A stretch of DNA of 64,000 nt from Prevotella sp. (GCA_016291005.1 JAEEVT010000002.1:6-64005), one strand, 5' to 3'; positions 21,848-36,428 are shown, numbered from the stretch's first letter. A program made the numbers and translations. Notes: a model not told the origin generated them from the sequence alone.

Positions 21848-23014
21848 ATGCGGAAACTACTATTTACATTGTGCGTGTGTTTAGCATTTGCGACTCAGTC
21901 AATGGCACAACAACAGGTCACTAACCAGCGGCTCATCTCTGCGGGAAACGTCTTCTTTGTGCCTCACTGGTTCGTCACCCTTCAAGGCGGTGGTGCCTAC
22001 GATGTGGGTGAAGCAAAGTTTAGCAAGCTTGTCAGTCCTGCCCTACAGGCATCATTGGGTTACCAGTACAATCCCTATCTGGCCACCCGACTGTCTGTCA
22101 GCGGATGGCAGGCTCGCAACTGCTATGCCTATCCCTATGCTGAATACAAATGGAATTTCATCCAGCCTGCCGCTGACGTTCTGGCAGACCTCACCACCTT
22201 GATTGGCGGCTGGAATCCTGATCGTTCCTTCCATGTATGGGCTTTTGCCGGTCTGGGAGTGGCGCTGTCATTTAACAACGACGATGCTTTAGAGGCTGAC
22301 AAGCGTTACGGCATTGACTTCCAGAAGATCTGGGATGGCAGCCGGTGGAACCCCGTGGTCAGGGGAGGCCTTGGCGCTGACATCGTTTTGACGGACAACA
22401 TTTCCGTCGGAGCTGAGGTTAATGCCAACATGCTGCCAGACCATTTCAACTCCAAGCTTGGCAAGCGCGACAATCGGGACTGGCATTTCAATGCCTTGGT
22501 AGGCATTAAGTACACTATTGGCAGGAGCTACGGCCATACGGAACCCATTTATCAGACCATCGTGGAGCCTGTGCCTCAACCAGAACCGAAGCCAGAGCCG
22601 AAGGTCGAACCCAAGCCGGAGCCAAAGCCTGAGTTTGTGGACGTTCCTGTCGAGAAGATCTCCTTTAATGTCAACATTCATTTTGTCATTAACCAGAGTG
22701 TAATTCGTGCCAACCAGGTGCCCAAGCTGCAGCGACTGCTGCAATACCTGCACGAGCATCCGAAGGCATTTATCCGTCTCTCCGGCTATGCCGACAAGGA
22801 CACGGGAACTCCCGAAATCAACATGCGTCTCTCAATCGAGCGTTCACAGGTGGTTTCACAATACCTGCAGGATGCGGGCATCGAGGAGTGGCGTATCCGT
22901 CGCTTTGCCAAGGGCGACCGCGTCCAGCCTTTCGACATTCCACAGGACAACCGCGTCTGCATCTGCTTTGTCTACGATCCTGACAACCCTGTTCCTCAGG
23001 CTTTCACTTACTAA
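21848..23014 (+). CDS. OmpA family outer-membrane protein
   Basis: Signal peptide, beta-barrel, PEPK linker, peptidoglycan-binding GYADKDTGTPEINMRLSIERS. Confidence 0.9.
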   Translation: MRKLLFTLCVCLAFATQSMAQQQVTNQRLISAGNVFFVPHWFVTLQGGGAYDVGEAKFSKLVSPALQASLGYQYNPYLATRLSVSGWQARNCYAYPYAEYKWNFIQPAADVLADLTTLIGGWNPDRSFHVWAFAGLGVALSFNNDDALEADKRYGIDFQKIWDGSRWNPVVRGGLGADIVLTDNISVGAEVNANMLPDHFNSKLGKRDNRDWHFNALVGIKYTIGRSYGHTEPIYQTIVEPVPQPEPKPEPKVEPKPEPKPEFVDVPVEKISFNVNIHFVINQSVIRANQVPKLQRLLQYLHEHPKAFIRLSGYADKDTGTPEINMRLSIERSQVVSQYLQDAGIEEWRIRRFAKGDRVQPFDIPQDNRVCICFVYDPDNPVPQAFTY

Positions 23015-23053: not shown

Positions 23054-23785
23054 ATGAAAACTATCCGTAAAATTCTATTGCTGGCCGTAACAACGACCAT
23101 CATTGGCGCCCAAAGTTCGTGTACGGACTATCAGGACGAGATTGACGCGCTGGACGTCCGCGTCACTTACCTGGAAAGTCTTGTCCAGAAGGTCAACACA
23201 CAGATAGAGTCGCTGAAGACCATCGTCTCAGCCTACGCCAGTGGTGATGTAGTGACAAGCATCACAGAAAACAGCGAGGGTTACATCATCAACTTCATGA
23301 ACTCCGACCCCGTCTTTGTCCATCATGGCAAGGATGGCAAAGATGGTAAGGACGGTAAAGACGGTGCCGACGGTAAGGATGGTAAAGACGGTAAGGACGG
23401 CAAAGACGGCAAGGACGCCCAGATGCCAAACATCACCATCGAACAAGACCCTATTGACGGCTGCTACTACTGGAAGCTGAACGGCGAGTGGCTTACCGAT
23501 CCCTATGGTGTGCGCATTCAGGCCAACGGTAAGGACGGCAAGGACGGTGAGGACGGCAAGGACGGCATCACCCCACAGGTGCGTATCAGTCCAGACGGTA
23601 TCTGGGAGGTTTCCACCGACGGTGGCGTCACTTGGCAGAGCACGGGTACTTCTGCTGCCGGCAAGGACGGTAAGGACGGCCAGGATGCCAACGTCATCGT
23701 CAGAGTTATCACTAACTGGAACGAAGGATACGTGGAATTCATCACCGCTTCGGGTTCCTTCCGCGTTCCTCTGAAGACAAGCTAA
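23054..23785 (+). CDS. Lipoprotein with DUF4988/PL29-N-like coiled coil and collagen-like Gly-Lys-Asp repeats
   Basis: SSCTDYQDEIDALDVRV, GKD tracts, YYWKLNGEWL, WEVSTDGGVTW. Confidence 0.8.
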   Translation: MKTIRKILLLAVTTTIIGAQSSCTDYQDEIDALDVRVTYLESLVQKVNTQIESLKTIVSAYASGDVVTSITENSEGYIINFMNSDPVFVHHGKDGKDGKDGKDGADGKDGKDGKDGKDGKDAQMPNITIEQDPIDGCYYWKLNGEWLTDPYGVRIQANGKDGKDGEDGKDGITPQVRISPDGIWEVSTDGGVTWQSTGTSAAGKDGKDGQDANVIVRVITNWNEGYVEFITASGSFRVPLKTS

Positions 23786-23798
23786 TTCCCTGAACATC

Positions 23799-24545
23799 AT
23801 GAAGAAAGTAACTATCAAACTATTAGCCCTTTTGCTGCCGGCACTTCTGTTGATGGGAGCGTGCAGCGACGACTACGGCGACCAGTTACGCAGTTTGGGC
23901 AAACGAGTGGAGTGGCTGGAAGAATACATGCAGAAGGTCAACTCGAGCATTGAGAACCTGAACAGGCTCGTTACTGCCATTCAGGAGAAAGGCTACATCA
24001 CCAACTACACCATCAATGCTGACGGTTCATGCACCCTTGTCTTCAGTGATGGCAGAACTATCACGTTACAAGACGGCAAAGACGGAGCCGACGGAAGGGA
24101 TGGACGAGACGGTGTTGACGGCAGGGATGGTCATGACGGACATGACGGACACGACGGACATGACGGCAAGGAAGCCCAGCTGAATGTGAGCGTCATGCAG
24201 GATGCTGACGGACAATGGTACTGGACGCTGAACGGTAATTGGCTGCTCGATACCAACGGCAACAAGGTACGAGCCGGGGCTACCGACGGTAAAGACGGTA
24301 CCAATGGTAAAGACGGTAGTAACGGCTACGTTCCCCTGATGCGCATCAACGAGGACGGCATTTGGGAAGTATCTACCGATGGCGGCAAGACATGGCAAAG
24401 CACGGGTTCGCCAGCAAACGGAAAGGACGGTAAGGACGGCCGCGCCGACTGTATCTCGAACGTTACGGTTTCAAGTGACGGCAAATACCTTATCATTACA
24501 CTGGCTGACGGAACGACAACGTTTACTATTCCTATTTTAGAGTAA
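23799..24545 (+). CDS. Paralogous DUF4988-like collagen-repeat lipoprotein
   Basis: GACSDDYGDQL, G-x-D tracts, WYWTLNGNWL, WEVSTDGGKTW. Confidence 0.8.
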   Translation: MKKVTIKLLALLLPALLLMGACSDDYGDQLRSLGKRVEWLEEYMQKVNSSIENLNRLVTAIQEKGYITNYTINADGSCTLVFSDGRTITLQDGKDGADGRDGRDGVDGRDGHDGHDGHDGHDGKEAQLNVSVMQDADGQWYWTLNGNWLLDTNGNKVRAGATDGKDGTNGKDGSNGYVPLMRINEDGIWEVSTDGGKTWQSTGSPANGKDGKDGRADCISNVTVSSDGKYLIITLADGTTTFTIPILE

Positions 24546-25142: not shown

Positions 25143-25796
25143 TTATTTCTTTTTCTTGGCGTTGGGGCAATGGTCGCACAGGAACTGATAGACGAAGTCG
25201 AAGTCCTCGTCGGCGCAGTAGACGCGGTTGCGGCTGAGGAGCTGGTTGACCTTGATGAGGTTCATGCGGCGGCAGGGGATGACGCGGCGTACACCGCTCA
25301 GCGTGGTGGTCATCGAGGTGCGCGTTGCTGCCAGTATGCCCATCCCCACCATGCCGGGCTTGCCGCTGGCGGCGCCAGCCATAGCGGTGAGCTTGCCAAT
25401 GGTGCGGGCTTTGTGGATGGTGCTCTTCAGCTGTTTGTGGACCACTTCCTTCTCGTCCATGACGAAGAGGACGCTGTATTTCCAGCCGTAATACCAGGCG
25501 ACGAAAAAGTAGGCCACGTAGCCCAGTACGAAGAAGAAGAGTGTGAGCAGGACGAACATCTCCAAGAAGTTCCACGCCATCTCGAGGCTGGCGTCTCCCG
25601 TGCAGCACATGATGACCATATTGAACAGATAGACGATGGCGAAGCTGATGGCCAGCACCCAATAGACGTCGAAGAGGATGCTGGGGTTGATGAGCATGGG
25701 GACGTCGTACACCCAACGGTATTTGCCGTCTGGGCAAAGCACCGGGTGCGAGGAAGCCATAGCGTCGTAGTTTTCTTTCTTCTTTCGATTTGCCAT
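25143..25796 (-). CDS. Hypothetical membrane protein (2 TM helices plus soluble C-terminal domain)
   Basis: Host-like codon usage and two hydrophobic segments. Start moved to ATG 25796 because the longer ORF begins inside a repeat. Confidence 0.7.
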   Translation of the reverse strand: MANRKKKENYDAMASSHPVLCPDGKYRWVYDVPMLINPSILFDVYWVLAISFAIVYLFNMVIMCCTGDASLEMAWNFLEMFVLLTLFFFVLGYVAYFFVAWYYGWKYSVLFVMDEKEVVHKQLKSTIHKARTIGKLTAMAGAASGKPGMVGMGILAATRTSMTTTLSGVRRVIPCRRMNLIKVNQLLSRNRVYCADEDFDFVYQFLCDHCPNAKKKK

Positions 25797-25803
25797 ATTC
25801 GTT

Positions 25804-25884
25804 GCAAAGATAGTGCAAACCGAATGAAAAACCAAATTTATTTGAGTTTTTCTGAGGTGCAGCCTATTTTCTCCGAAGGAAAAA
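25804..25884 (-). repeat. Promoter-carrying ~80-bp repeat, copy A
   Basis: Inverted copy of 26183-26249; ends in GCACTATCTTTGC (-7 box). Confidence 0.8.
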
Positions 25885-26025
25885 TACAAAGAAAAATGAA
25901 GATTATTAGTGCGTTGCGATGCTAAAAAACGTTAAACAATAGATGTGCGGCAGCAAATTCTTCATTCTTCATTCTTCATTCTTCATTAAAAGCACTACCT
26001 TTGCAGCCGCTAAGCGAGCAAACGG

Positions 26026-26096
26026 TGTCCAATGGTGTAATGGTAGCACAACAGGTTTTGGTTCTGTTTGTGGTGGTTCGAATCCGCCTTGGACAA
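26026..26096 (+). tRNA. tRNA-Gln (anticodon TTG)
   Basis: Acceptor stem TGTCCAA/TTGGACA, anticodon arm ACAGG-TTTTGGT-TCTGT, T loop TTCGAAT; TACCTTTG promoter at 25996; CCA not encoded. Confidence 0.95.
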
Positions 26097-26145
26097 CTGA
26101 CGACGCTCCGCAAGTCCTTATTTTATGGGCTTGCGGTTCTTTTTT

Positions 26146-26329
26146 TCAAATAAATTTGGTTTTTCGTTTAGTTTGCACTACCTTTTCCTTCGGAGAAAGT
26201 AGGCTGCACCTCAGAAAAACTCAAAATTATTTGGTTTTTCGTTCGGTTTAATCAACTTTCTCACGCTCAGAAATGAAAATTTTATTCTCATTTCTTCGCT
26301 TAATCGAAAATTTGCACTACCTTTGTAGC
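26146..26329 (+). repeat. Promoter-carrying repeat, copy B plus partial copies
   Basis: TTTTCCTTCGGAGAAAGTAGGCTGCACCTCAGAAAAACTCAA...; terminal TTTGCACTACCTTTG lies upstream of 26353. Confidence 0.75.
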
Positions 26330-26352: not shown

Positions 26353-27522
26353 ATGACACCTGTAAAGATTTTGAGCGTAGACGACGAGATGGACCTCGAG
26401 TTGTTGTTGACGCAATACTTCCGCCGCCAGATTCGTAAGGGACAGTATGAGTTCTTTTTTGCCCATAACGGACTGGAGGCTTTGACGACGTTGCTGAAGC
26501 AGAAGGACATAGACATCATCCTTTCGGACATCAACATGCCTGAGATGGATGGCCTGACGCTGTTGGCAAAGGTTAACGAAATGCAGAACCCGGCGCTGAA
26601 GTGCATCATGGTATCGGCGTATGGCGACATGAGCAACATCCGCCAGGCGATGAACAACGGTGCCTTCGACTTTGCGACGAAGCCCATCGACCTGGATGAC
26701 CTCAGCGTCACCATCGAGAAGGCCGCGGAGCAGATAGATTACATCAAGAAGTCGCAGGCCGAGCACACGCAGTTGGAATCGCTGAAGACTGACCTTGCTG
26801 TGGCTGGCGACATCCAGCAGGCCATACTGCCGCGCATCTTCCCGCCATTCCCTGAGGACGAAGACGTGCTGGACCTGGCGGCGCTGATGACACCTGCCAA
26901 GGATGTTGGCGGCGACTTCTACGACTTCTTCCGCATTGACAAGGACCGCATTGGCGTGGTGATAGCCGACGTCGCGGGCAAGGGAGTCCCTGCAGCCATC
27001 TTCATGGCCGTCAGCCGTACCTTGATACGTGCCATAGGCATGCAGGGCTACGAGCCTGACGTGTGTCTGACGAAAGCCAACAGCCTGCTGTGTCAGGAGT
27101 CGGTGGACCAGATGTTCGTCACGGTATTCTACGCCATCTATAACCTCCGCACTGGGGTGTTGGACTATTGTAACGGAGGACATAACTCACCTTATATAAT
27201 AAGAAGTGGCGGACAGGTAGAGGCCATGCCCATCAGCCAGAATTGTCTGGTAGGTGTTATCGAGGGTGTGACGTACAAAAAGGAACAGACTCAGTTACAA
27301 GAGGGTGACATGCTGGTGATGTATACCGATGGAGTGAACGAGGCTACAAACACCACCTTTGAGGAATATGGAGATGACCGCATGGAGAAACTACTGGGTC
27401 AACTCAACGTCAATAGCTGTCGCGAGGTGATAGACCGGCAGTTGGCTGACGTCAGAGCATTCGCCAACGGTGCGGAGCAAAGCGACGACATTACATTACT
27501 GGCTCTAAAAAGAAAACAATAA
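26353..27522 (+). CDS. Response regulator receiver fused to a SpoIIE/PP2C phosphatase (RsbU-like)
   Basis: REC motifs VDDE, SDINMP, TKP; PP2C motifs VGGDFYD, ADVAGKG, YTDG, DDIT. Confidence 0.92.
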   Translation: MTPVKILSVDDEMDLELLLTQYFRRQIRKGQYEFFFAHNGLEALTTLLKQKDIDIILSDINMPEMDGLTLLAKVNEMQNPALKCIMVSAYGDMSNIRQAMNNGAFDFATKPIDLDDLSVTIEKAAEQIDYIKKSQAEHTQLESLKTDLAVAGDIQQAILPRIFPPFPEDEDVLDLAALMTPAKDVGGDFYDFFRIDKDRIGVVIADVAGKGVPAAIFMAVSRTLIRAIGMQGYEPDVCLTKANSLLCQESVDQMFVTVFYAIYNLRTGVLDYCNGGHNSPYIIRSGGQVEAMPISQNCLVGVIEGVTYKKEQTQLQEGDMLVMYTDGVNEATNTTFEEYGDDRMEKLLGQLNVNSCREVIDRQLADVRAFANGAEQSDDITLLALKRKQ

Positions 27523-27544
27523 CGAGAAGGGCTCTCCTAAAGGG

Positions 27545-29149
27545 ATGGACTTGGGGGGCGAGGACGAAAACGAAAACGACTTGAAGTATAGTAAGAGTAC
27601 CATCGTGGCCTGTGTGGCCTGTGCGCTGCTGGCAATAGCCCTTGTCAGGGATGTCATTACGCAACGGGAGCTGATTCTCCAGAACGAAGAACTGCAGGAT
27701 CAGCTTAAGAGGTTGACGAGACAGGAACAGGAGTCGGAGGTGATGCAGCACGTGAATGCTCAGATGGAAGAGATAGCCAACGAGGAGCGGCGCATCAGCG
27801 ACGAGCAGCGTGAGGAGGCCATAGAGCAGCGAAGACAGGCGGAGCGTGAGCGCCAGAATGCCGAGGAGCAGCGCCGTGAGGCTGAGCAGGAGCGTCAGAA
27901 CGCCCTGGTTGCTGAGAAGCGTGCCGTGGAGGCCTCGCAGGTTGCCCAGCGCGAGAAGCAGCATGCCGAACAGCAACGTGCGGAGGCTGAATACTCGAAA
28001 CGCGTGACAGACACTCTGAGCTATGTCACTCTTGTGCGTACACTGGGAAACACGGCAGTTATGCTATACAGGGCGAACAACCACGAACTGGCAGACATGA
28101 TAGCATATACCGCGGTGATGTTCACCAACCGATATCACGGAGATATCTATGCGCTACCCGTCTATCAGTCATTGGCCATAACCAGCCAGAACAAAAGTGT
28201 CTGGCTGAAGCACAAGGGAAGCATTAGGGACATCACATTCTCGGACGACGCCCACGGATTCATGATGACGTGCAGCACCTATGGCGAAATCATGAGACAC
28301 ACAGGCTACTATAACGGTAAGTTGAACAGCGAGATGGTAGTACAGAATCCGAAATATGACTTCCGCGACCTCTACATCGACCGCAACACCAATACCACCT
28401 ATGCCTTGAGCCGGTCAGGCCATCTCATCATCATTGACCATAACAAGAAGGTAAAGGTGGTGGAACTCCCGGTAAGCAAGCCCTTCAACTTAGACTTTAT
28501 TGACAACCAGTTTATCATCTTCGGTGAAGGTAAGATGGCGCTGTTCGACATCAAGACATGTAGCATCATCGACACAAAAGAACTACCCTTCAGTATAGAA
28601 TCTCTGAGCCGCTCTGAAAACTGTCCTATCGTCTTCGACCGGCAGGGACGAATGCATCTCATCAAGGGCTTCAACAAGATAGAAACTAAAAAAGTCCCCT
28701 TCAAGGGTCAGGTGACGGCCTTTGCAGAATCGAAGCACCAGCATTTCAAGGCTTACGGCATGAGTGACGGAACGATACATGTCATAAATGGCAAGGGTGA
28801 GGAGCTAAAACTGGTGGGACACCTGTCGCGCATTTCCAAGCTAAAAGTAAACGGCCATCGCTTGTACTCGTCAAGCTACGACGGTACGGTGAACCTATGG
28901 CTACTGAACATGCCGAAGATAGAACCTATGACACTGTTTACGACAAAGGGCTGGATTATCAACTTTACCTTCGACCTGAAGAAGTCCAGCATCTGGTCCG
29001 GCGACCAAAACGGTAACCTGACGAGTGCGCTCATCTCTGTGCCTGACATGACTGAGCGTCTGAAGAATAAGATTAAACGCAACTTCACGCGTGACGAGTG
29101 GAATTACTACATCGGAAGGAACGTGCCGTATGAAAGAATAAAAGAATAA
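27545..29149 (+). CDS. TM, long coiled coil and WD40 beta-propeller protein
   Basis: Hydrophobic IVACVACALLAIALV, A-x-x-Q-R heptads, GHLSRISKLKVNGHRLYSSSYDGTVNLW. Start uncertain. Confidence 0.75.
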   Translation: MDLGGEDENENDLKYSKSTIVACVACALLAIALVRDVITQRELILQNEELQDQLKRLTRQEQESEVMQHVNAQMEEIANEERRISDEQREEAIEQRRQAERERQNAEEQRREAEQERQNALVAEKRAVEASQVAQREKQHAEQQRAEAEYSKRVTDTLSYVTLVRTLGNTAVMLYRANNHELADMIAYTAVMFTNRYHGDIYALPVYQSLAITSQNKSVWLKHKGSIRDITFSDDAHGFMMTCSTYGEIMRHTGYYNGKLNSEMVVQNPKYDFRDLYIDRNTNTTYALSRSGHLIIIDHNKKVKVVELPVSKPFNLDFIDNQFIIFGEGKMALFDIKTCSIIDTKELPFSIESLSRSENCPIVFDRQGRMHLIKGFNKIETKKVPFKGQVTAFAESKHQHFKAYGMSDGTIHVINGKGEELKLVGHLSRISKLKVNGHRLYSSSYDGTVNLWLLNMPKIEPMTLFTTKGWIINFTFDLKKSSIWSGDQNGNLTSALISVPDMTERLKNKIKRNFTRDEWNYYIGRNVPYERIKE

Positions 29150-29196
29150 AAGAATTAAAAAATAAAATATTGGCTGCGGCCAAATGAGAAATAGAA

Positions 29197-32094
29197 ATGA
29201 TAAATGAAGAAAGGAAGACGGCGTGCCACACTTTGACTTTTGGGTCAAAGACATGGCGACGATACGGTGGGCAGACAATGCTTCTCCGGCTCTTGCTGTG
29301 CGCAGCATTCCTCATTCCTCATTTCTCACTTCTCATTTCACACTCCTCATTCCTCATTCAACATTCCACATTCTTCATTTGCCCAGCTTACGGCCAGGGA
29401 GCACCCATTATCCGAAACTTCCCAGCGACGGAATACAAGGCGCACAACATGAACTTCGACGTCATAATGGGCGACGACGGTACGGTTTACTTTGCCAACT
29501 TCGAAGGACTGCTGTACTACGACAATGCTGAATGGCGCATCATCCACACCCCTGGCGTGAGCCGCATCACTGCTGTCTTCCGCGATCAGAAGGGCACCAT
29601 CTGGACTGGAGGCTACAACTACATAGGTTACGTGGAGTCTGACGAGCAGGGATGTCTGCGGCTGCATTCCTTGCATGATAGCAGCCAACAGCAAACGTTC
29701 CAAGGCGAGGTGCAGTGGATATGGGAGAGGGAGGGTCACATCTTCTTCAAAGTCAGTGACGACAAGATATACACCATCCAAAACGACAATGTGCTTTGGG
29801 CGGCAGGCGAGAAGCTGCCCACCACGGGATTCTCTGTGTTTGTTGATCAGACGCACATCACCCAGGTGCAAGAGCTGGAAGACGGGTTGAAGGCCGTATC
29901 GACGAACGGTAACGGAATCATCATCATGGATGCTAATGACAAGGAACTGTTCCGACTTACTGAGGACAACGGACTATGCTCGAACAACGTCAACCACATC
30001 ACCTACAACAAGCATGGACTCATCTGGGGAGCTACTGACAGTGGCGTATTTGCCGTGGCATTCCCATCCATCTATACCCACTATACCCAGCACCAAGGCC
30101 TGCGTGGCGGCGTGCTGTCCATCGAGAAACTGGGGAATGACCTTTTTGTCGGAACCATACGTGGACTCTTCGTGAAGAAGGGTATACAATTCGAACCCGT
30201 CAAAGACGTCAAGTACGGCTGTTGGCAATTGGCACGACAGGGAAACTCGCTTCTGGCGGCAACAAGCAACGGTGTCTACCGCATCAGTCCTGGTCCCAAC
30301 GTCAAACACCTCAATACCGACAATACGCTCTCGCTGTTGGTCGATGAAGGGGGCTACTACAGTGGAGAGGCGGACGGTGTATACTACAACACAGGGGCTA
30401 TCCACAAGAAGGTGAGCGACTTAGAGAAGGTGGTGAAAATCAGACGAGACAGTCAGGGAACCATCTGGATGCAGAACCTGTATGGCAAAATATGGAGAAA
30501 CTTTGCACCATATACCGACAAGAAAGAACCAGAGGCCAGCGCGACACTGGTGGAATACAACGGACAGGTGCTACCCATCAATACCTTTACGACAAAGCCC
30601 TTCCCCTATCCGACCTTCTCATACACTGACCCTGAAGGCGTCACGTGGCTCACCAATCCCAAGGCGCGCCACCTCTATGCCTTTAAGGACGGAAATGTAC
30701 AGACGAAACTGTCGCATGACGTCTATCCACTCATGGAACTCTCGGTACGTACCATGCTGCGTGACGACAGGTTGCTGTGGATAGGTAGTGACAAGGGACT
30801 TAATGTGGTCTATTATACCCAGCACGAACCCTCGGAGTCACCAAATAAACCGCACCTGCTGCTGCGCTCCGTACTGTTGCATGGCGACAGCGTGCTGTGG
30901 GGAGGCTATGGAGAACAGATTACCCAGTTGCCTACACTCAATAGTGACGACCACCGACTGACGTTCAACTTCTCCATCGACTATCCTTCGCTGACGCTGA
31001 AGACGCAGTACCGCAACCGCATCAATGGCGGTAAGTGGAGTGCCTGGGACACTGACACTTTCGAAGAGTTCAACAACCTGACACATGGCAGCTATACCCT
31101 CGAGATACAAGCCAGGGACGCCTTTGGAAAATTGTCCGACATCGTGACGGTCCAGTTCGACATCAGGGCGCCGTTCTACCTGCGATGGTATATGATAGTG
31201 CTCTACCTCCTGCTCTTGATGCTGGCCGCCTACCTTATTATGCAGTGGCGCACCATACAGTTGGAGAAAGACAAGCACCGGCTGGAACGACTGGTGCAGC
31301 AGCGCACCAATGAAGTTGTCCGACTGGAGAAACAAGCCTCAGTGGGTAAGCTGACGCAGGGTCTGATTGACCGCATCCTGAACCCGCTGAACTACATCAA
31401 CAACTTTGCCAAGCTCTCTGAAGGACTGGTCAAGGACGTCACAGCCAACATTGAAGACGAGAAGGAACACATGGATCCAGATAACTACGAGGACACCCTG
31501 GATGTGCTGGACATGCTGAAAGGCAACCTTCAGAAGGTGGGCGAGCATGGTGCCAATACCACTCGTACGCTGAAGGCAATGGAAGAAATGCTGAAAGACC
31601 GCTCGGGAGGCATTGTACAGATGAACCTCACCACGCTGTTACACCAGAACGAGGAGATGGTGAGGAAGTACTTTGAGAACGAGATATCCCAGTATCACAT
31701 CAAGACCATCTTTGAGCTGCCTCAGAACGACATTCTCATTAACGGAAATGCAGAACAGCTGAACAAGACCTTTATGAACCTGCTGACCAATGCTATTTAT
31801 GCCCTTGTCAAGAAGGCACAGCGTGGACAGGCTTACGACCCAGAAATCAGTCTGACGACTGAAATGTCGAATAAGCATATACTGCTGCACTTCCGCGACA
31901 ACGGTATTGGCATCGAGAGCACCATCATGGATAAGATTTTCGACCCCTTCTTCACCACCAAGACCACTGGCGAGGCTTCGGGAGTAGGACTTTACCTGGG
32001 TCGCGAGATCATCCAGAACCACGGCGGTGACATCAGCGTGCAGTCGGAGAAAGACGTCTATACGGATTTTACAATCACATTACCAGTGATATAG
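29197..32094 (+). CDS. Beta-propeller/Y_Y_Y sensor histidine-kinase-like protein lacking the phospho-His
   Basis: HTCS-type periplasmic propeller, Y_Y_Y domain, TM; H-box reads GLIDRILNPLN; N, G1, F and G2 boxes are present. Start may be 29278. Confidence 0.88.
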   Translation: MINEERKTACHTLTFGSKTWRRYGGQTMLLRLLLCAAFLIPHFSLLISHSSFLIQHSTFFICPAYGQGAPIIRNFPATEYKAHNMNFDVIMGDDGTVYFANFEGLLYYDNAEWRIIHTPGVSRITAVFRDQKGTIWTGGYNYIGYVESDEQGCLRLHSLHDSSQQQTFQGEVQWIWEREGHIFFKVSDDKIYTIQNDNVLWAAGEKLPTTGFSVFVDQTHITQVQELEDGLKAVSTNGNGIIIMDANDKELFRLTEDNGLCSNNVNHITYNKHGLIWGATDSGVFAVAFPSIYTHYTQHQGLRGGVLSIEKLGNDLFVGTIRGLFVKKGIQFEPVKDVKYGCWQLARQGNSLLAATSNGVYRISPGPNVKHLNTDNTLSLLVDEGGYYSGEADGVYYNTGAIHKKVSDLEKVVKIRRDSQGTIWMQNLYGKIWRNFAPYTDKKEPEASATLVEYNGQVLPINTFTTKPFPYPTFSYTDPEGVTWLTNPKARHLYAFKDGNVQTKLSHDVYPLMELSVRTMLRDDRLLWIGSDKGLNVVYYTQHEPSESPNKPHLLLRSVLLHGDSVLWGGYGEQITQLPTLNSDDHRLTFNFSIDYPSLTLKTQYRNRINGGKWSAWDTDTFEEFNNLTHGSYTLEIQARDAFGKLSDIVTVQFDIRAPFYLRWYMIVLYLLLLMLAAYLIMQWRTIQLEKDKHRLERLVQQRTNEVVRLEKQASVGKLTQGLIDRILNPLNYINNFAKLSEGLVKDVTANIEDEKEHMDPDNYEDTLDVLDMLKGNLQKVGEHGANTTRTLKAMEEMLKDRSGGIVQMNLTTLLHQNEEMVRKYFENEISQYHIKTIFELPQNDILINGNAEQLNKTFMNLLTNAIYALVKKAQRGQAYDPEISLTTEMSNKHILLHFRDNGIGIESTIMDKIFDPFFTTKTTGEASGVGLYLGREIIQNHGGDISVQSEKDVYTDFTITLPVI

Positions 32095-32131
32095 GAGTTA
32101 AAGTAGTTAGGGAAGTTAAAGAAGTATTAAT

Positions 32132-32956
32132 ATGGAACAGGAACTGGAAACCCTTAAGCAACAGCTCAAGCAACAAGAGAAACTGGCATCGCTGGGTATG
32201 CTGTCGGCAGGCATTGCCCACGAGATACAGAATCCGCTGAACTTCGTCATCAACTTCAGTAAGATGTCGGAGAAACTGCTCAGCGACCTCGCAGAAATCG
32301 TTGAGGACAACGAGGACAAGTTGTCTGAGGACGACCGTGAGGATGTGGAGGACATTGTGACTGACCTGAAGGAGAACATGGCCAGAATTGTTGAACATGG
32401 TGAACGTGCCATCAGCATCATACAAGGCATCCTGCTGGTGTCTCGAGGTAAGGAAAACGAATTCCTGCCCACTGACATCAACCACCTTGTGAAGGAGTAT
32501 GTATGGCTGTCGTATCATGCCATGAGAGCCAAAGACAAGCGCTTCAACATTGCCATCCACGAGGACTATCAGGAAGGTATACCGCAGGTGATGGTCATTC
32601 CGCAGGACTTGAGCCGTGCCATACTGAACATCATGAACAATGCCTGCTATGCCGTATTCAAGCGCTCACAGACGGAGGGCGAAAACTACAAGCCCACCAT
32701 AGATGTCAAGACGGCCATCTCTGGCGAACAGCTCGTCATCAGCATCCGCGATAATGGTGAGGGTATGACTGACGAGGTGAAGGAGCGCCTCTACGAGAAT
32801 TTCTTCACGACGAAACCCATTGGGATGGGCACTGGCCTGGGTATGGGAATCACTCGCGACATCGTAGAAAACAAGCATGACGGCAAGCTCAGCTTCAAGT
32901 CGACTGCAGGAGAAGGCACCTGCTTCACCATCAGCATACCAAATAGGAAAAAGTAA
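32132..32956 (+). CDS. Soluble sensor-less histidine kinase (HisKA + HATPase)
   Basis: GIAHEIQNPLN, NIMNNACYA, DNGEG, FFTTKPIGMGTGLG. Confidence 0.92.
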   Translation: MEQELETLKQQLKQQEKLASLGMLSAGIAHEIQNPLNFVINFSKMSEKLLSDLAEIVEDNEDKLSEDDREDVEDIVTDLKENMARIVEHGERAISIIQGILLVSRGKENEFLPTDINHLVKEYVWLSYHAMRAKDKRFNIAIHEDYQEGIPQVMVIPQDLSRAILNIMNNACYAVFKRSQTEGENYKPTIDVKTAISGEQLVISIRDNGEGMTDEVKERLYENFFTTKPIGMGTGLGMGITRDIVENKHDGKLSFKSTAGEGTCFTISIPNRKK

Positions 32957-32969
32957 GAGATAGCGAAAA

Positions 32970-35471
32970 GTGAAAGACATGAAACAGATCCTCCTTTTCA
33001 TCCTTTTGGCTTTTTTACCATTAACGTTGTCTGCACAGACGACGGAAGAACGCCATCGCGCTATCTATGATGCTGCTGAGCAGGATTATAATATAGGAAG
33101 ACTTGAAGAGGCAGAGAAACAGCTAAAGGACAACATCGACAACTTCCCTGTGGCGCTACGTCAGAACGTCTACCGTATGCTGTCGCTGTGCTATCTGGGA
33201 ATGGACCGTGAAGACGAAGCCGAGCAGTATGTCCGCAATATGTTGGACGAGAATCCTTATTACAGTCCAACCCTTAATGACCCACAGCGGTTCATAGATA
33301 TGGTGGAGAACTTCAAGTCGGGACTTTCAGCCACCATCACCACGGCATCCAGCCAAGCTGAGAACCTGAGCGAGGTGCCTGTGCCTACAACGCTGATTAC
33401 GGAGGAGATGATACACGATTGTAGTGCTCGTAACCTCCAGGAGGTTCTGGCAGCTTATGTACCAGGCATGAACATCGTAGATTGTAACGATGATATCAAC
33501 ATCGCCATGCGCGGCATATACAGTGTTGGGCAGGAAAAGATTCTCATCATGCTCAACGGCCACCGCCTCAATAGTTTTGCCACTAACATTGCTGCTCCCG
33601 ACTTCAGCATCTCGCTCGATAAGGTACGACAGATAGAGGTGCTGCGTGGTCCTGCCTCATCACTTTATGGCGGTGTGTCACTTACTGCCGTGGTCAACGT
33701 CATCACCAAGCAGGGAGCCGATGTTGACGGTGTCGAGGCTCATGCCGGTGTGGGATCTCATGGTCAGCTTAAGGCTGGGCTACTGTTCGGCAAGCGCTAC
33801 TTCGACCTTGACCTGATTATCTGGGGTAACCTGTATAAGGCCTCAGGCGAGAAAATCTACGTCCCACAGGAGGAAACAGGTATGAAGATGACCGATGGAG
33901 ACATCACCGTGGGAAAGATAGGTCCCAAACCCTCCTATGACATTGGCCTCCAGATGAAGTACAAGAACCTGCAGTTCCTTTATAACAGCGCTTTCTCACA
34001 GATAGTGTCCCCCTTCACTATGGGCTATACTATGTCGCCCTACACCATTGATAACTATCGTACCGTCAATAGCATACGCCCCAGCTTTTCGACGCTCTCC
34101 CATCATGCCAACCTCAGCTATGGACAACAGTTGGGCAACTTGTACTTGAAGGGGACTGTCACCTACGACAATAGCGACCTGACGCACTATCAGGTTGTCA
34201 ACGAGCCCCCAGTTTCCGCCTTTATCGAATTGTTGCCTTTGCCCGATATCATCAAGAATCAGCTCTCCGGTCACGAAGGCATTACCCGGTTCCTCAATGG
34301 TCAGGAGCACACCATAGGTGGTAAGCTGCAGGGCGACTGGAGCTATATCAACACCACAAACCACCAGGGACAGCTTTCCTTTGGTGCAGAATACAGCTAT
34401 TTCGAGCTCGACGATGTGCGTTACACTTATGGCTATGACTACAATAAACTTGCCTCTGAGCTTGATTCTATCCAGACCTTAGGCAAAGGTCACGAGAGCA
34501 ACTTCAACGCTTTCGTACAGCTGAAACACCACTGGCGCTCGTTCATTTTCAATACCGGACTGCGCTTCGACTACAAGAACCGCTATAACGGAACCAAGAT
34601 CCGTGAGTTCTCACCACGTATGGCGCTCATCTACGTACAGCCAAAGTGGAATCTTAAGCTCTCTTACTCAAAAGCTTTTATCGACGCGCCCTACATGTAC
34701 CGTAAAATCAACCTCTTCCTTTACAGCTACATGGGCTATCCTGAACTGACCGTTGATCTTGCCCCAGAGTCGCTGCACTCCCTACAGCTCACCTTTGGTG
34801 CCAACCATTGGCTACCGGGACTCAACTTTGAAATCAACGGATTCTATAATAGAGCCCGGGATCTTATTATCCCTAACGTTTCAGAGCATGAGAACACGGG
34901 TAACATTAATACCTATGGTATCGAGCTGTCAGCCAACTACCAGTACCGCCGTTTCTCGTCATATCTCACAGCCACCTGGCAGGATGTCGGCCGTGAGGAG
35001 ATTTATGACTACGACATCAAACAAGCAATCAGCACCCCAACCATCTCTGCCAACGCCGTTCTGGCCTGGCAAGTCACCAAAAGTCTCAATCTTCACACAC
35101 ACATAGACTTCCAAGGCCGTCAGCAAGCATTCTATCTTGATATAATAAACTATGCAGCCTACTATTCAATCCTTTCGTACCTTCGTGATTTGATATTGAA
35201 GTACGAGGCGCGTCCTACTAATGATCTCCAACATGAAATAGACGTAATATTGGGGACGTTAGAGAATCCAAGACAAAAAATGTCCGTCACCAAAGACGTA
35301 CCGGCCCGTGTGCTCTTCGACGTTGGCGCCACTTATAAATGGCGTAACTTTACTTTTGAATTCAATGTCAAAAATCTTTTTAACAAGAATTACAGACAGG
35401 GAGGCCTGTCGACAGGGCTTGTTCCCCAGCGTGGTCGCTGGATGATGTTCGACGTTGCCTATAAATTCTAA
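32970..35471 (+). CDS. TonB-dependent receptor with an N-terminal TPR extension
   Basis: Signal peptide, TPR-like helices, plug (IEVLRGPASSLYGG), barrel ending VAYKF; no SusD partner. Confidence 0.88.
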   Translation: MKDMKQILLFILLAFLPLTLSAQTTEERHRAIYDAAEQDYNIGRLEEAEKQLKDNIDNFPVALRQNVYRMLSLCYLGMDREDEAEQYVRNMLDENPYYSPTLNDPQRFIDMVENFKSGLSATITTASSQAENLSEVPVPTTLITEEMIHDCSARNLQEVLAAYVPGMNIVDCNDDINIAMRGIYSVGQEKILIMLNGHRLNSFATNIAAPDFSISLDKVRQIEVLRGPASSLYGGVSLTAVVNVITKQGADVDGVEAHAGVGSHGQLKAGLLFGKRYFDLDLIIWGNLYKASGEKIYVPQEETGMKMTDGDITVGKIGPKPSYDIGLQMKYKNLQFLYNSAFSQIVSPFTMGYTMSPYTIDNYRTVNSIRPSFSTLSHHANLSYGQQLGNLYLKGTVTYDNSDLTHYQVVNEPPVSAFIELLPLPDIIKNQLSGHEGITRFLNGQEHTIGGKLQGDWSYINTTNHQGQLSFGAEYSYFELDDVRYTYGYDYNKLASELDSIQTLGKGHESNFNAFVQLKHHWRSFIFNTGLRFDYKNRYNGTKIREFSPRMALIYVQPKWNLKLSYSKAFIDAPYMYRKINLFLYSYMGYPELTVDLAPESLHSLQLTFGANHWLPGLNFEINGFYNRARDLIIPNVSEHENTGNINTYGIELSANYQYRRFSSYLTATWQDVGREEIYDYDIKQAISTPTISANAVLAWQVTKSLNLHTHIDFQGRQQAFYLDIINYAAYYSILSYLRDLILKYEARPTNDLQHEIDVILGTLENPRQKMSVTKDVPARVLFDVGATYKWRNFTFEFNVKNLFNKNYRQGGLSTGLVPQRGRWMMFDVAYKF

Positions 35472-35870: not shown

Positions 35871-36428
35871 TTACATGGCTGCCTCGCGGAGTTTCAACAT
35901 ACCACGGTGCATCAGGTTACGGACAGAGTGGTAGTTCATCTGCATAATGCCACAGATCTCGTCGTACTTGCGCTCCTCTAAATAATATAAGGTAATGGCC
36001 TGACGCTGGCGACGGGTAAGGTTCTGCATCAGGTGAGCAACCTTAGCCGAACGCATAAACTCTCCCTCTTGGGTCAGATAGTCGCGCTCTACATCCTCGG
36101 CAGCGTGACGGTATTCGTATGACTCAACCTCGTTGGGCGTTGAGAACGTCTGACGACGGAATTCATCCAACAGACGATTCTTCAAAGATATAATAAGGTA
36201 CGAGCACAAGTTGTTAATGGCGTTCTTGTCATGACGCTTGTTGTAGACCTTGATAAAGACGTCGTGGATACAGTCTTTCAGCAACTCCTGGTCATTGGTG
36301 AGTTTCATACCATAATTAAAAAGCATCTGTACGTACAAGTCGTACAGTTCGCCAAAAGCCTGGTCGTTGCCAGAACAGAATGCTGTCACCAGTTGTTGGG
36401 TGCGCTCTTTGAGGTTGGTAGTAGCCAT
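35871..36428 (-). CDS. ECF sigma-70 factor
   Basis: AFGELYDLY, DCIHDVFIKV, LTRRQRQAITLYYLEERKYDEICGIM. Confidence 0.92.
   Translation of the reverse strand: MATTNLKERTQQLVTAFCSGNDQAFGELYDLYVQMLFNYGMKLTNDQELLKDCIHDVFIKVYNKRHDKNAINNLCSYLIISLKNRLLDEFRRQTFSTPNEVESYEYRHAAEDVERDYLTQEGEFMRSAKVAHLMQNLTRRQRQAITLYYLEERKYDEICGIMQMNYHSVRNLMHRGMLKLREAAM

Follow-up and report, generated by a model that had tools for sequence, protein, structure and literature searches.

A conserved five-gene operon of rumen Prevotella that may couple a TonB-dependent receptor and a split sensor kinase to a protein phosphatase

What kind of signalling pathway places a TonB-dependent receptor, a sensor that has lost its phospho-acceptor histidine and a protein phosphatase in one operon? 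This question is raised by a locus in a 64,000-nucleotide stretch of DNA from a rumen Prevotella sp. (JAEEVT010000002.1:6-64005; the whole stretch is called the window here). The window is contig C18 of an 82%-complete assembly of 3.09 Mb in 200 contigs, and absences reported below for the host genome refer to its assembled portion. Between positions 26353 and 35471, we found exactly five long open reading frames (ORFs), all on the + strand and separated by 22, 47, 37 and 13 nucleotides (nt). They encode a response regulator with a receiver and a PP2C phosphatase domain (g1, 26353-27522; Pfam), a membrane-anchored protein with a stalk and a seven-bladed propeller (g2, 27545-29149; hydropathy and AlphaFold2), a Reg_prop sensor with a His-less kinase core (g3, 29197-32094; Pfam), a soluble HisKA kinase (g4, 32132-32956; Pfam) and a TonB-dependent receptor with an N-terminal TPR-like domain (g5, 32970-35471; Pfam and a structural model). 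An earlier note on this DNA had described a tightly spaced set of five genes without a SusD, carbohydrate-active enzyme (CAZyme), STAS or anti-sigma kinase gene. Indeed, all five ORFs lie where it had placed them, with gaps of 13-47 nt, and no SusD, CAZyme, STAS or RsbW-like gene is present within 26353-35471. We consider that the five genes, as one operon, could constitute a conserved two-component pathway of the cell envelope that acts by dephosphorylating proteins and not by binding DNA, an interpretation to which we give an even chance.

Conservation of the operon and its phosphatase

Is this gene arrangement more than a coincidence on a single contig? A g2 profile search of species-representative genomes returned 329 matching stretches, of which the best 80 loci were examined. 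All 80 come from Prevotellaceae, for the most part rumen members of the family, and cultured strains are among them (Xylanibacter ruminicola KHT3; Prevotella sp. tc2-28, tf2-5 and ne3005; Prevotellaceae bacterium HUN156 and MN60). Wherever the contig was long enough, g1, g2, g3 and g4 were colinear, which is the case in about 75 other species genomes; the arrangement is therefore not due to chance. Orthologue identities amount to 66-85% for g1, 42-67% for g2, 44-66% for g3 and 65-78% for g4, and the median intergenic distances in the orthologous loci are -4, -4, +3 and -4 nt. The g5-type receptor usually follows directly after g4, and the flanks of the orthologous loci are variable. A genome from another family carries the same five genes. 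In a 300-genome sample of the family, full-length g1-type genes (at least 58% identity) and g2-type genes occurred in exactly the same 15 genomes from 8 genera, always on the same contig and within 7 kb; this is a count and not a test, and related genomes are not independent. The operon described in the earlier note is thus supported in that its five genes are co-conserved and tightly coupled.

The first gene carries the presumed output. It combines a receiver domain (Response_reg, PF00072, 1e-22) with a SpoIIE/PP2C phosphatase domain (PF07228, 8e-51; 173 bits at a cut-off of 25). Among 72 orthologues, the receiver residues DD10-11, D59, S88 and K110 are invariant, and so are the metal-binding motifs DVGGD, DVxGKG, TDG and DD of the phosphatase. 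Judged by these residues, both the receiver and the PP2C active site of g1 are complete. Among solved structures, Pseudomonas aeruginosa RssB is the closest (3EQ2, 1e-24), and the match to the NCBIfam family of RssB (NF045505, 1.5e-33) reaches 116 bits and stays far under the cut-off of 700 bits.

As a separate observation, 45 of the 80 loci carry directly upstream of the REC-PP2C gene a divergently oriented gene for a 362-residue protein without Pfam match (e.g. L019:7519-8607), often followed by a GH43 gene; this protein is absent from the host genome.

The kinase pair

How could a signal be passed on to g1? The third gene encodes a sensor with a periplasmic Reg_prop/Ig-like domain between two transmembrane segments (TMs), the second of which spans residues 658-687 (31168-31257), followed by a kinase core that ends with HATPase_c at residue 965 (Pfam). 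The protein probably starts at the ATG at 29278, because homologues align only from about residue 58 and Met28, encoded at 29278, opens the first hydrophobic segment. In the H-box, Asp725 (GAC at 31369) stands in place of the phospho-acceptor His and an Arg in place of the Glu, and the Asn at +4 is kept. This altered H-box, GLIDRILNP, is found in 77/77 orthologues, in which the residues of the ATP-binding N, G1, F and G2 boxes are invariant as well. The neighbouring g4 encodes a protein of 274 residues with HisKA and HATPase_c domains (Pfam) and no TM according to hydropathy. Its phospho-acceptor is His30 (CAC at 32219) in the H-box G-I-A-H-E-I-Q-N-P, and both the pattern GIAHExQNP and the key ATP-binding residues are conserved in 71/71 orthologues.

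The nature of the exchanges in g3 is informative. A study of four HisKA kinases (Willett & Kirby 2012, PMC3510030) reported that the acidic residue after the His is required for kinase activity only, and the Thr or Asn at +4 for phosphatase activity only. Read with these residue roles, g3 has lost exactly the kinase-specific residues (His and Glu) and has kept the phosphatase-specific Asn. The term pseudokinase, by which the earlier note described g3, is thus apt as regards the missing His; it sits badly with ATP-binding boxes that are invariant throughout.

Where does this pair come from? In distant Bacteroidales, the sensor is a single protein of 1240-1300 residues (Reg_prop, Y_Y_Y, TM, GAF, HisKA with its His, and HATPase). 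The C-terminal core of this fused sensor shares 47-52% identity with g4 and only about 33-35% with the core of g3. In a tree, g4 groups with the fused-sensor cores (94/83), and the g3 cores form a separate clade on a long branch. From the core identities and the tree, we conclude that g4 descends from the kinase core of what was once a single Reg_prop sensor kinase, and that the g3 core is a diverged, His-less copy. The kinase pair of g3 and g4 is real and ancient.

Two modes of action can be envisaged. In FasB/FasC, an obligate kinase heterodimer, the His comes from one partner and the kinase domain from its mate (PMC12675982). Likewise, g3 might pair with g4 via the helices of the DHp (dimerization and histidine phosphotransfer) region, so that the ATP domain of g3 would act on the His of g4. 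Alternatively, g4 might be a constitutive kinase that g3 counteracts as a phosphatase gated by the signal. The conserved residues described above fit both mechanisms, and in either of them g3 would set the phosphorylation level of g1.

The envelope proteins and their wider relatives

What would the sensor respond to? The signal would be received by the periplasmic propeller domain of g3, probably together with the propeller that g2 holds on its stalk. g2 has one N-terminal TM at 27587-27664 (hydropathy) with positive charges on its N-terminal side, and is a type II membrane-anchored protein. Its true start is probably the TTG at 27581, which we favour over the start of the longest ORF at 27545 because homologues begin there. 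An AlphaFold2 model based on a 51-sequence alignment (mean pLDDT, the per-residue model confidence, of 87.7) consists of a helix of about 160 residues, two short helices and 28 strands that form a seven-bladed propeller with pLDDT >90. The helical stalk, which would measure about 20 nm if fully extended, is in the alignment unusually well conserved for a coiled coil. The WD40-like propeller region (approximately 28193-29032) scores 26.1 against PF00400, just under the cut-off of 27, and g2 has homologues whose own WD40 match reaches an E-value of 1e-39. None of its 723 homologous clusters at E<=1e-3 bears a functional name, the ESM Atlas offers 'hypothetical/WD' cluster names only, and NCBIfam holds no family-level name for g2 or g5 (the matches of g1, g3 and g4 are all below cut-off). 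A reading of g2 as an energised protein like TolA or TolB was dropped, as no His or Ser motif of its TM segment is conserved among the homologues.

The receptor g5 probably starts at the ATG at 32979, because this codon stands directly before the signal peptide. Plug (3e-15) and TonB_dep_Rec barrel (9e-24) domains were assigned by Pfam, and a stretch of about 95 helical residues separates the signal peptide from the TonB-box-like ATITTASS (33327-33353). These residues make up an N-terminal domain (33033-33323) that is conserved in all 68 orthologues and modelled as five helices with pLDDT >90. Its top Foldseek matches are all TPR proteins (PilF, designed TPRs, YbgF and BamD), weak as they are (E of at least 0.016, TM-score 0.5-0.56), and the Pfam TPR matches are sub-threshold (E 0.006-0.16). 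Pfam gave no STN domain in g5, and neither a SusD-like partner nor a CarboxypepD_reg N-domain on the receptor was found. Independently of this, the gene of the TPR-bearing receptor is tandemly duplicated downstream of the soluble kinase gene in seven loci (L008, L020, L033, L036, L039, L040 and L078).

Are g2 and g5 also associated outside the Prevotellaceae? In a sample of 401 genomes drawn evenly across the order, g2-like sequences were found in 86, nearly all of them forming the C-terminal half of a larger protein (about 1030-1090 residues). In these larger homologues, an nSTAND1 NTPase is joined to a membrane segment that follows a stretch rich in Lys and Arg, and then to a coiled coil and a WD40 propeller. 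g2 itself has no nSTAND1 domain (PF20703) according to Pfam and begins at the TM segment. The nSTAND1 loci of other Bacteroidales (L113, L115-L136) fall into two neighbourhood variants. In variant I, the nSTAND1 protein is followed by a TPR-bearing TonB receptor, a formyltransferase-like protein, an MFS-HEAT protein and the fused Reg_prop kinase. Variant II comprises an MFS-HEAT protein, a HAMP-PP2C phosphatase, a weak TIR-like protein (TIR_2), the nSTAND1 protein, a small OMP_b-brl_2 barrel, a propeller protein and a giant PKD/Omp28 protein secreted by the type IX secretion system (T9SS). A hidden Markov model (HMM) of the N-terminal domain of g5 matched the barrel gene adjoining the nSTAND1 gene in 22/23 distant loci, including the small OMP_b-brl_2 barrels (E 1e-13 to 1e-21). 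Based on these matches, the constant pair consists of a TM-stalk-propeller protein and an outer-membrane barrel that bears the TPR-like domain. The g5-type domain is thus kept beside a g2-type gene despite a change of the barrel, which we regard as the best indirect support for the proposed contact, in which the TPR-like domain of g5 would likely bind the propeller of g2. The window operon looks like a reduced form of this wider Bacteroidales cluster. The host genome contains no homologue of the nSTAND1, MFS-HEAT, formyltransferase-like or long STAS proteins of the wider clusters.

Could the operon then be the remnant of a conflict or defence system that detects invaders in the periplasm? The nSTAND1 clade of NTPases was established in work on conflict systems (PMC8195603) and, in the literature that we found, is mentioned solely in that context. 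Proteins with this NTPase have a C-terminal half to which g2 is homologous, its ancestors would have carried the NTPase as well, and a weak TIR_2-like protein is a neighbour in one variant. However, the NTPase is gone from g2, none of the genes encodes an effector domain and the PADLOC models gave no match to any of the five products. Moreover, the cluster is stably inherited and its cytoplasmic parts are strongly conserved and not diversifying. We deem such a remnant of a defence system very improbable.

A further question is whether the receptor takes part in signalling at all, or merely in uptake. We compared how the envelope parts diverge after removal of the divergence shared with g1 and g4. 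The divergence of g2 tracks that of the periplasmic domain of g3 (partial r 0.66), and the barrel of the receptor shows largely separate evolution from both g2 and g3; the compared pairs depend on one another, so that these correlations are suggestive only. In 22 of the 80 loci, a one-module non-ribosomal peptide synthetase (NRPS; C-A-T-TE, A-T-TE, shorter or longer forms) is embedded right after the receptor or between g4 and the receptor (e.g. L045:15163-18900, L073:9828-13568 and L055:10378-14271), which hints at a self-made small-molecule ligand. The window operon contains no NRPS, and no orthologue is found in the host genome. Such a ligand, taken up by the receptor, would favour a transport-centred explanation, according to which g5, perhaps stabilised by g2, imports a small molecule that g3 senses in the periplasm, much as the hybrid two-component sensors of Bacteroides respond to imported oligosaccharides, without any protein relay between the membranes. 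The independent evolution of the barrel speaks for this explanation, as does the periplasmic domain of g3, whose Reg_prop/Y_Y_Y type is that of hybrid sensors which bind ligands. Against it stand the TPR-like domain, placed ahead of the TonB box and conserved in all orthologues, and the retention of this domain beside g2-type genes even on a small, non-transporting barrel, which transport alone can hardly explain; nor has g2 any transport-related domain. We regard pure transport as possible but doubtful, and a relay from the outer to the inner membrane may operate instead.

Output, flanks and comparison with known systems

Which protein could g1 dephosphorylate? In the proposed relay, phosphorylated g1 would switch its own PP2C domain, which would then dephosphorylate a phospho-STAS protein encoded elsewhere in the genome and thereby flip a partner switch with an RsbW-like kinase. 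Proteins like RsbV and RsbW, which the earlier note had thought of as targets, are indeed encoded in the host genome, outside the operon: two single-domain STAS proteins with the SSGLR phospho-site motif, which are the two candidate substrates, and two RsbW-like kinases (HATPase_c_2). One of each lies in an apparent operon on contig C177 (2522-7167), which encodes an RsbW-like kinase, a 966-residue ABC transporter, an unknown 267-residue protein and a single-domain STAS protein. The second RsbW-like gene (L100:3145-3573) adjoins a small RelA/SpoT-type synthetase, and the second STAS gene (L082:1489-1800) has a soluble HisKA kinase gene downstream. In three variant I loci of relatives (L116, L123 and L139), an orthologue of the REC-PP2C protein (54-56% identity) has behind it a protein of 403-415 residues, whose N-terminal part is a STAS domain, as well as ABC transporter genes; L123 also contains, ahead of its REC-PP2C gene, a soluble kinase resembling g4 (45%). 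The cluster has an RsbW-STAS pair as its neighbour in L125 and L128. Taken together, these genes make a partner-switching output of the operon plausible.

Alternatively, g1 might dephosphorylate a non-STAS substrate or act as a phosphorylation-controlled adaptor in the manner of the RssB proteins. No STAS or RsbW gene was found in the operon or in or beside any of the 80 Prevotellaceae loci, and the best full-length matches of g1 are those to Pseudomonas RssB given above, which would suit this explanation. The invariance of the PP2C metal-binding motifs in 72 orthologues, however, argues for catalysis, STAS-domain genes adjoin the orthologues in more distant Bacteroidales and phosphorylatable STAS proteins are present in the host. 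An output other than a partner switch thus appears unlikely to us.

Combining these steps, g5 would supply or report a ligand, and receptor occupancy would be passed via the TPR-like domain to the stalked propeller of g2 and on to a His-less sensor that gates a soluble kinase, ending in STAS dephosphorylation without a sigma/anti-sigma pair. Such a chain would be a new form of cell-surface signalling in Bacteroidota, and we propose it, as a whole, only tentatively. Several observations weigh against the pathway proposed for the operon. On the envelope side, several loci have a second copy of the receptor, have it shifted by an inserted gene or have it replaced by another, the divergence of g2 tracks that of the g5 TPR-like domain only weakly (partial r 0.18), and the TPR fold assignment depends on the weak Foldseek E-values. 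As to the kinase pair, the host carries a paralogous cluster on contig C180 (1131-9527, minus strand) with counterparts of g1 (64% identity), g2 (40%), g3 (41%, also with Asp) and g5 (46%) and without g4, followed by a gene for a 158-residue GAF protein (571-1047); g3-type sensors can thus be encoded without a kinase of their own. In another genome, the cluster found first likewise has no g4, and a complete cluster is present elsewhere in the same genome. As to the output, the STAS and RsbW genes of the host are unlinked to the operon, two further PP2C proteins of the host (638 and 663 residues) are possible phosphatases for the STAS proteins, and the 403-415-residue STAS-domain proteins of relatives have no orthologue in the host genome.

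How is the operon delimited? Upstream, it is bounded by a tRNA-Gln gene (anticodon TTG, 26026-26097), which is the sole Rfam match; no riboswitch was found by Rfam ahead of the operon or of the receptor gene. The ORF at 25943-26251 overlaps this tRNA gene and is thus spurious, and both it and the ORF at 25170-25925 were rejected as operon members since neither is conserved with the operon. A candidate Bacteroidota -7 promoter box, TAccTTTG (26318-26325, + strand), was read from the sequence downstream of the tRNA gene, 27 nt before the start codon of g1. It fits TAnnTTTG, the consensus of Bacteroides promoters. A scan for sigma-70 promoters and terminators gave counts near the shuffled expectation and, being uninformative, was not used. 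Downstream, a gene for an extracytoplasmic function (ECF) sigma factor on the opposite strand (35871-36428) was rejected as a member, as it is convergent and not conserved in the orthologous loci. Elsewhere in the window, two adjacent DUF4988 genes with short collagen-like repeats (23054-24545) lie downstream of an OmpA-family gene (21848-23014).

Has a system of this composition been described before? The earlier note knew of none, and we likewise found no published description of the operon or of the wider cluster in the full-text literature; the conserved combination of five parts therefore appears uncharacterised. Taken singly, the parts are of known kinds: a pathway from a kinase to a REC-PP2C regulator, a TonB receptor extended at its N-terminus and a kinase partner that has no His. 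Prevotella dominate the rumen and their signalling is almost unstudied, and we found no characterised example of partner switching in Bacteroidota.

The cytoplasmic half of the operon resembles the RsbK-RsbY-RsbV-RsbW system of Bacillus cereus, in which a histidine kinase phosphorylates a REC-PP2C regulator whose phosphatase acts on a STAS protein, a scheme also known for HenR of Anabaena (PMC13555669) and Pseudomonas RssB (3EQ2). Unlike the operon, RsbK-type systems do without an outer-membrane receptor, a stalked propeller protein or a sensor partner that lacks the His, and they carry STAS and RsbW genes in the same locus, whereas these are unlinked to the window operon; in addition, g1 reaches 116 of the 700 bits set for the RssB family. 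In its periplasmic sensor domain and membrane topology, g3 is of the kind found in the Bacteroides hybrid two-component systems (Reg_prop/Y_Y_Y) of polysaccharide utilization loci (PULs). In contrast to these, it has no fused receiver, no AraC domain, no SusC/SusD pair beside it and an Asp in place of the His. A division of labour between two kinase-like proteins, or a His-less kinase as regulator, is also seen in FasB/FasC of group A Streptococcus, RetS-GacS and DivL. Unlike FasB/FasC, the sensor g3 has no His but has an ATP domain, and the His-bearing g4 has neither sensor nor membrane anchor. The operon thus represents a natural and strictly conserved split of a sensor kinase into a His-less sensor and a sensor-less kinase, by which the question of how kinase and phosphatase activities are partitioned becomes directly testable.

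With the nSTAND1-TM-coiled-coil-WD40 clusters, the operon shares the g2 part, a TPR-bearing barrel, a Reg_prop sensor kinase and a PP2C phosphatase, be it REC- or HAMP-linked. Those clusters contain in addition a STAND NTPase, MFS-HEAT and formyltransferase-like proteins and have a single canonical sensor kinase, whereas the operon does without the NTPase and the extra genes and has its kinase split into g3 and g4. Finally, FecA/FecR/FecI likewise comprises a TonB-dependent receptor with an extra periplasm-facing N-terminal domain ahead of the TonB box and an inner-membrane partner, and the TPR-like domain of g5 is placed where FecA-type transducers carry their signalling domain. Here, this domain is TPR-like and not STN, FecR anti-sigma and conserved ECF sigma factors are missing and the output is a two-component phosphatase. 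We anticipate that the operon may represent an alternative to FecA/FecR for the transfer of information from a TonB receptor to the cytoplasm.

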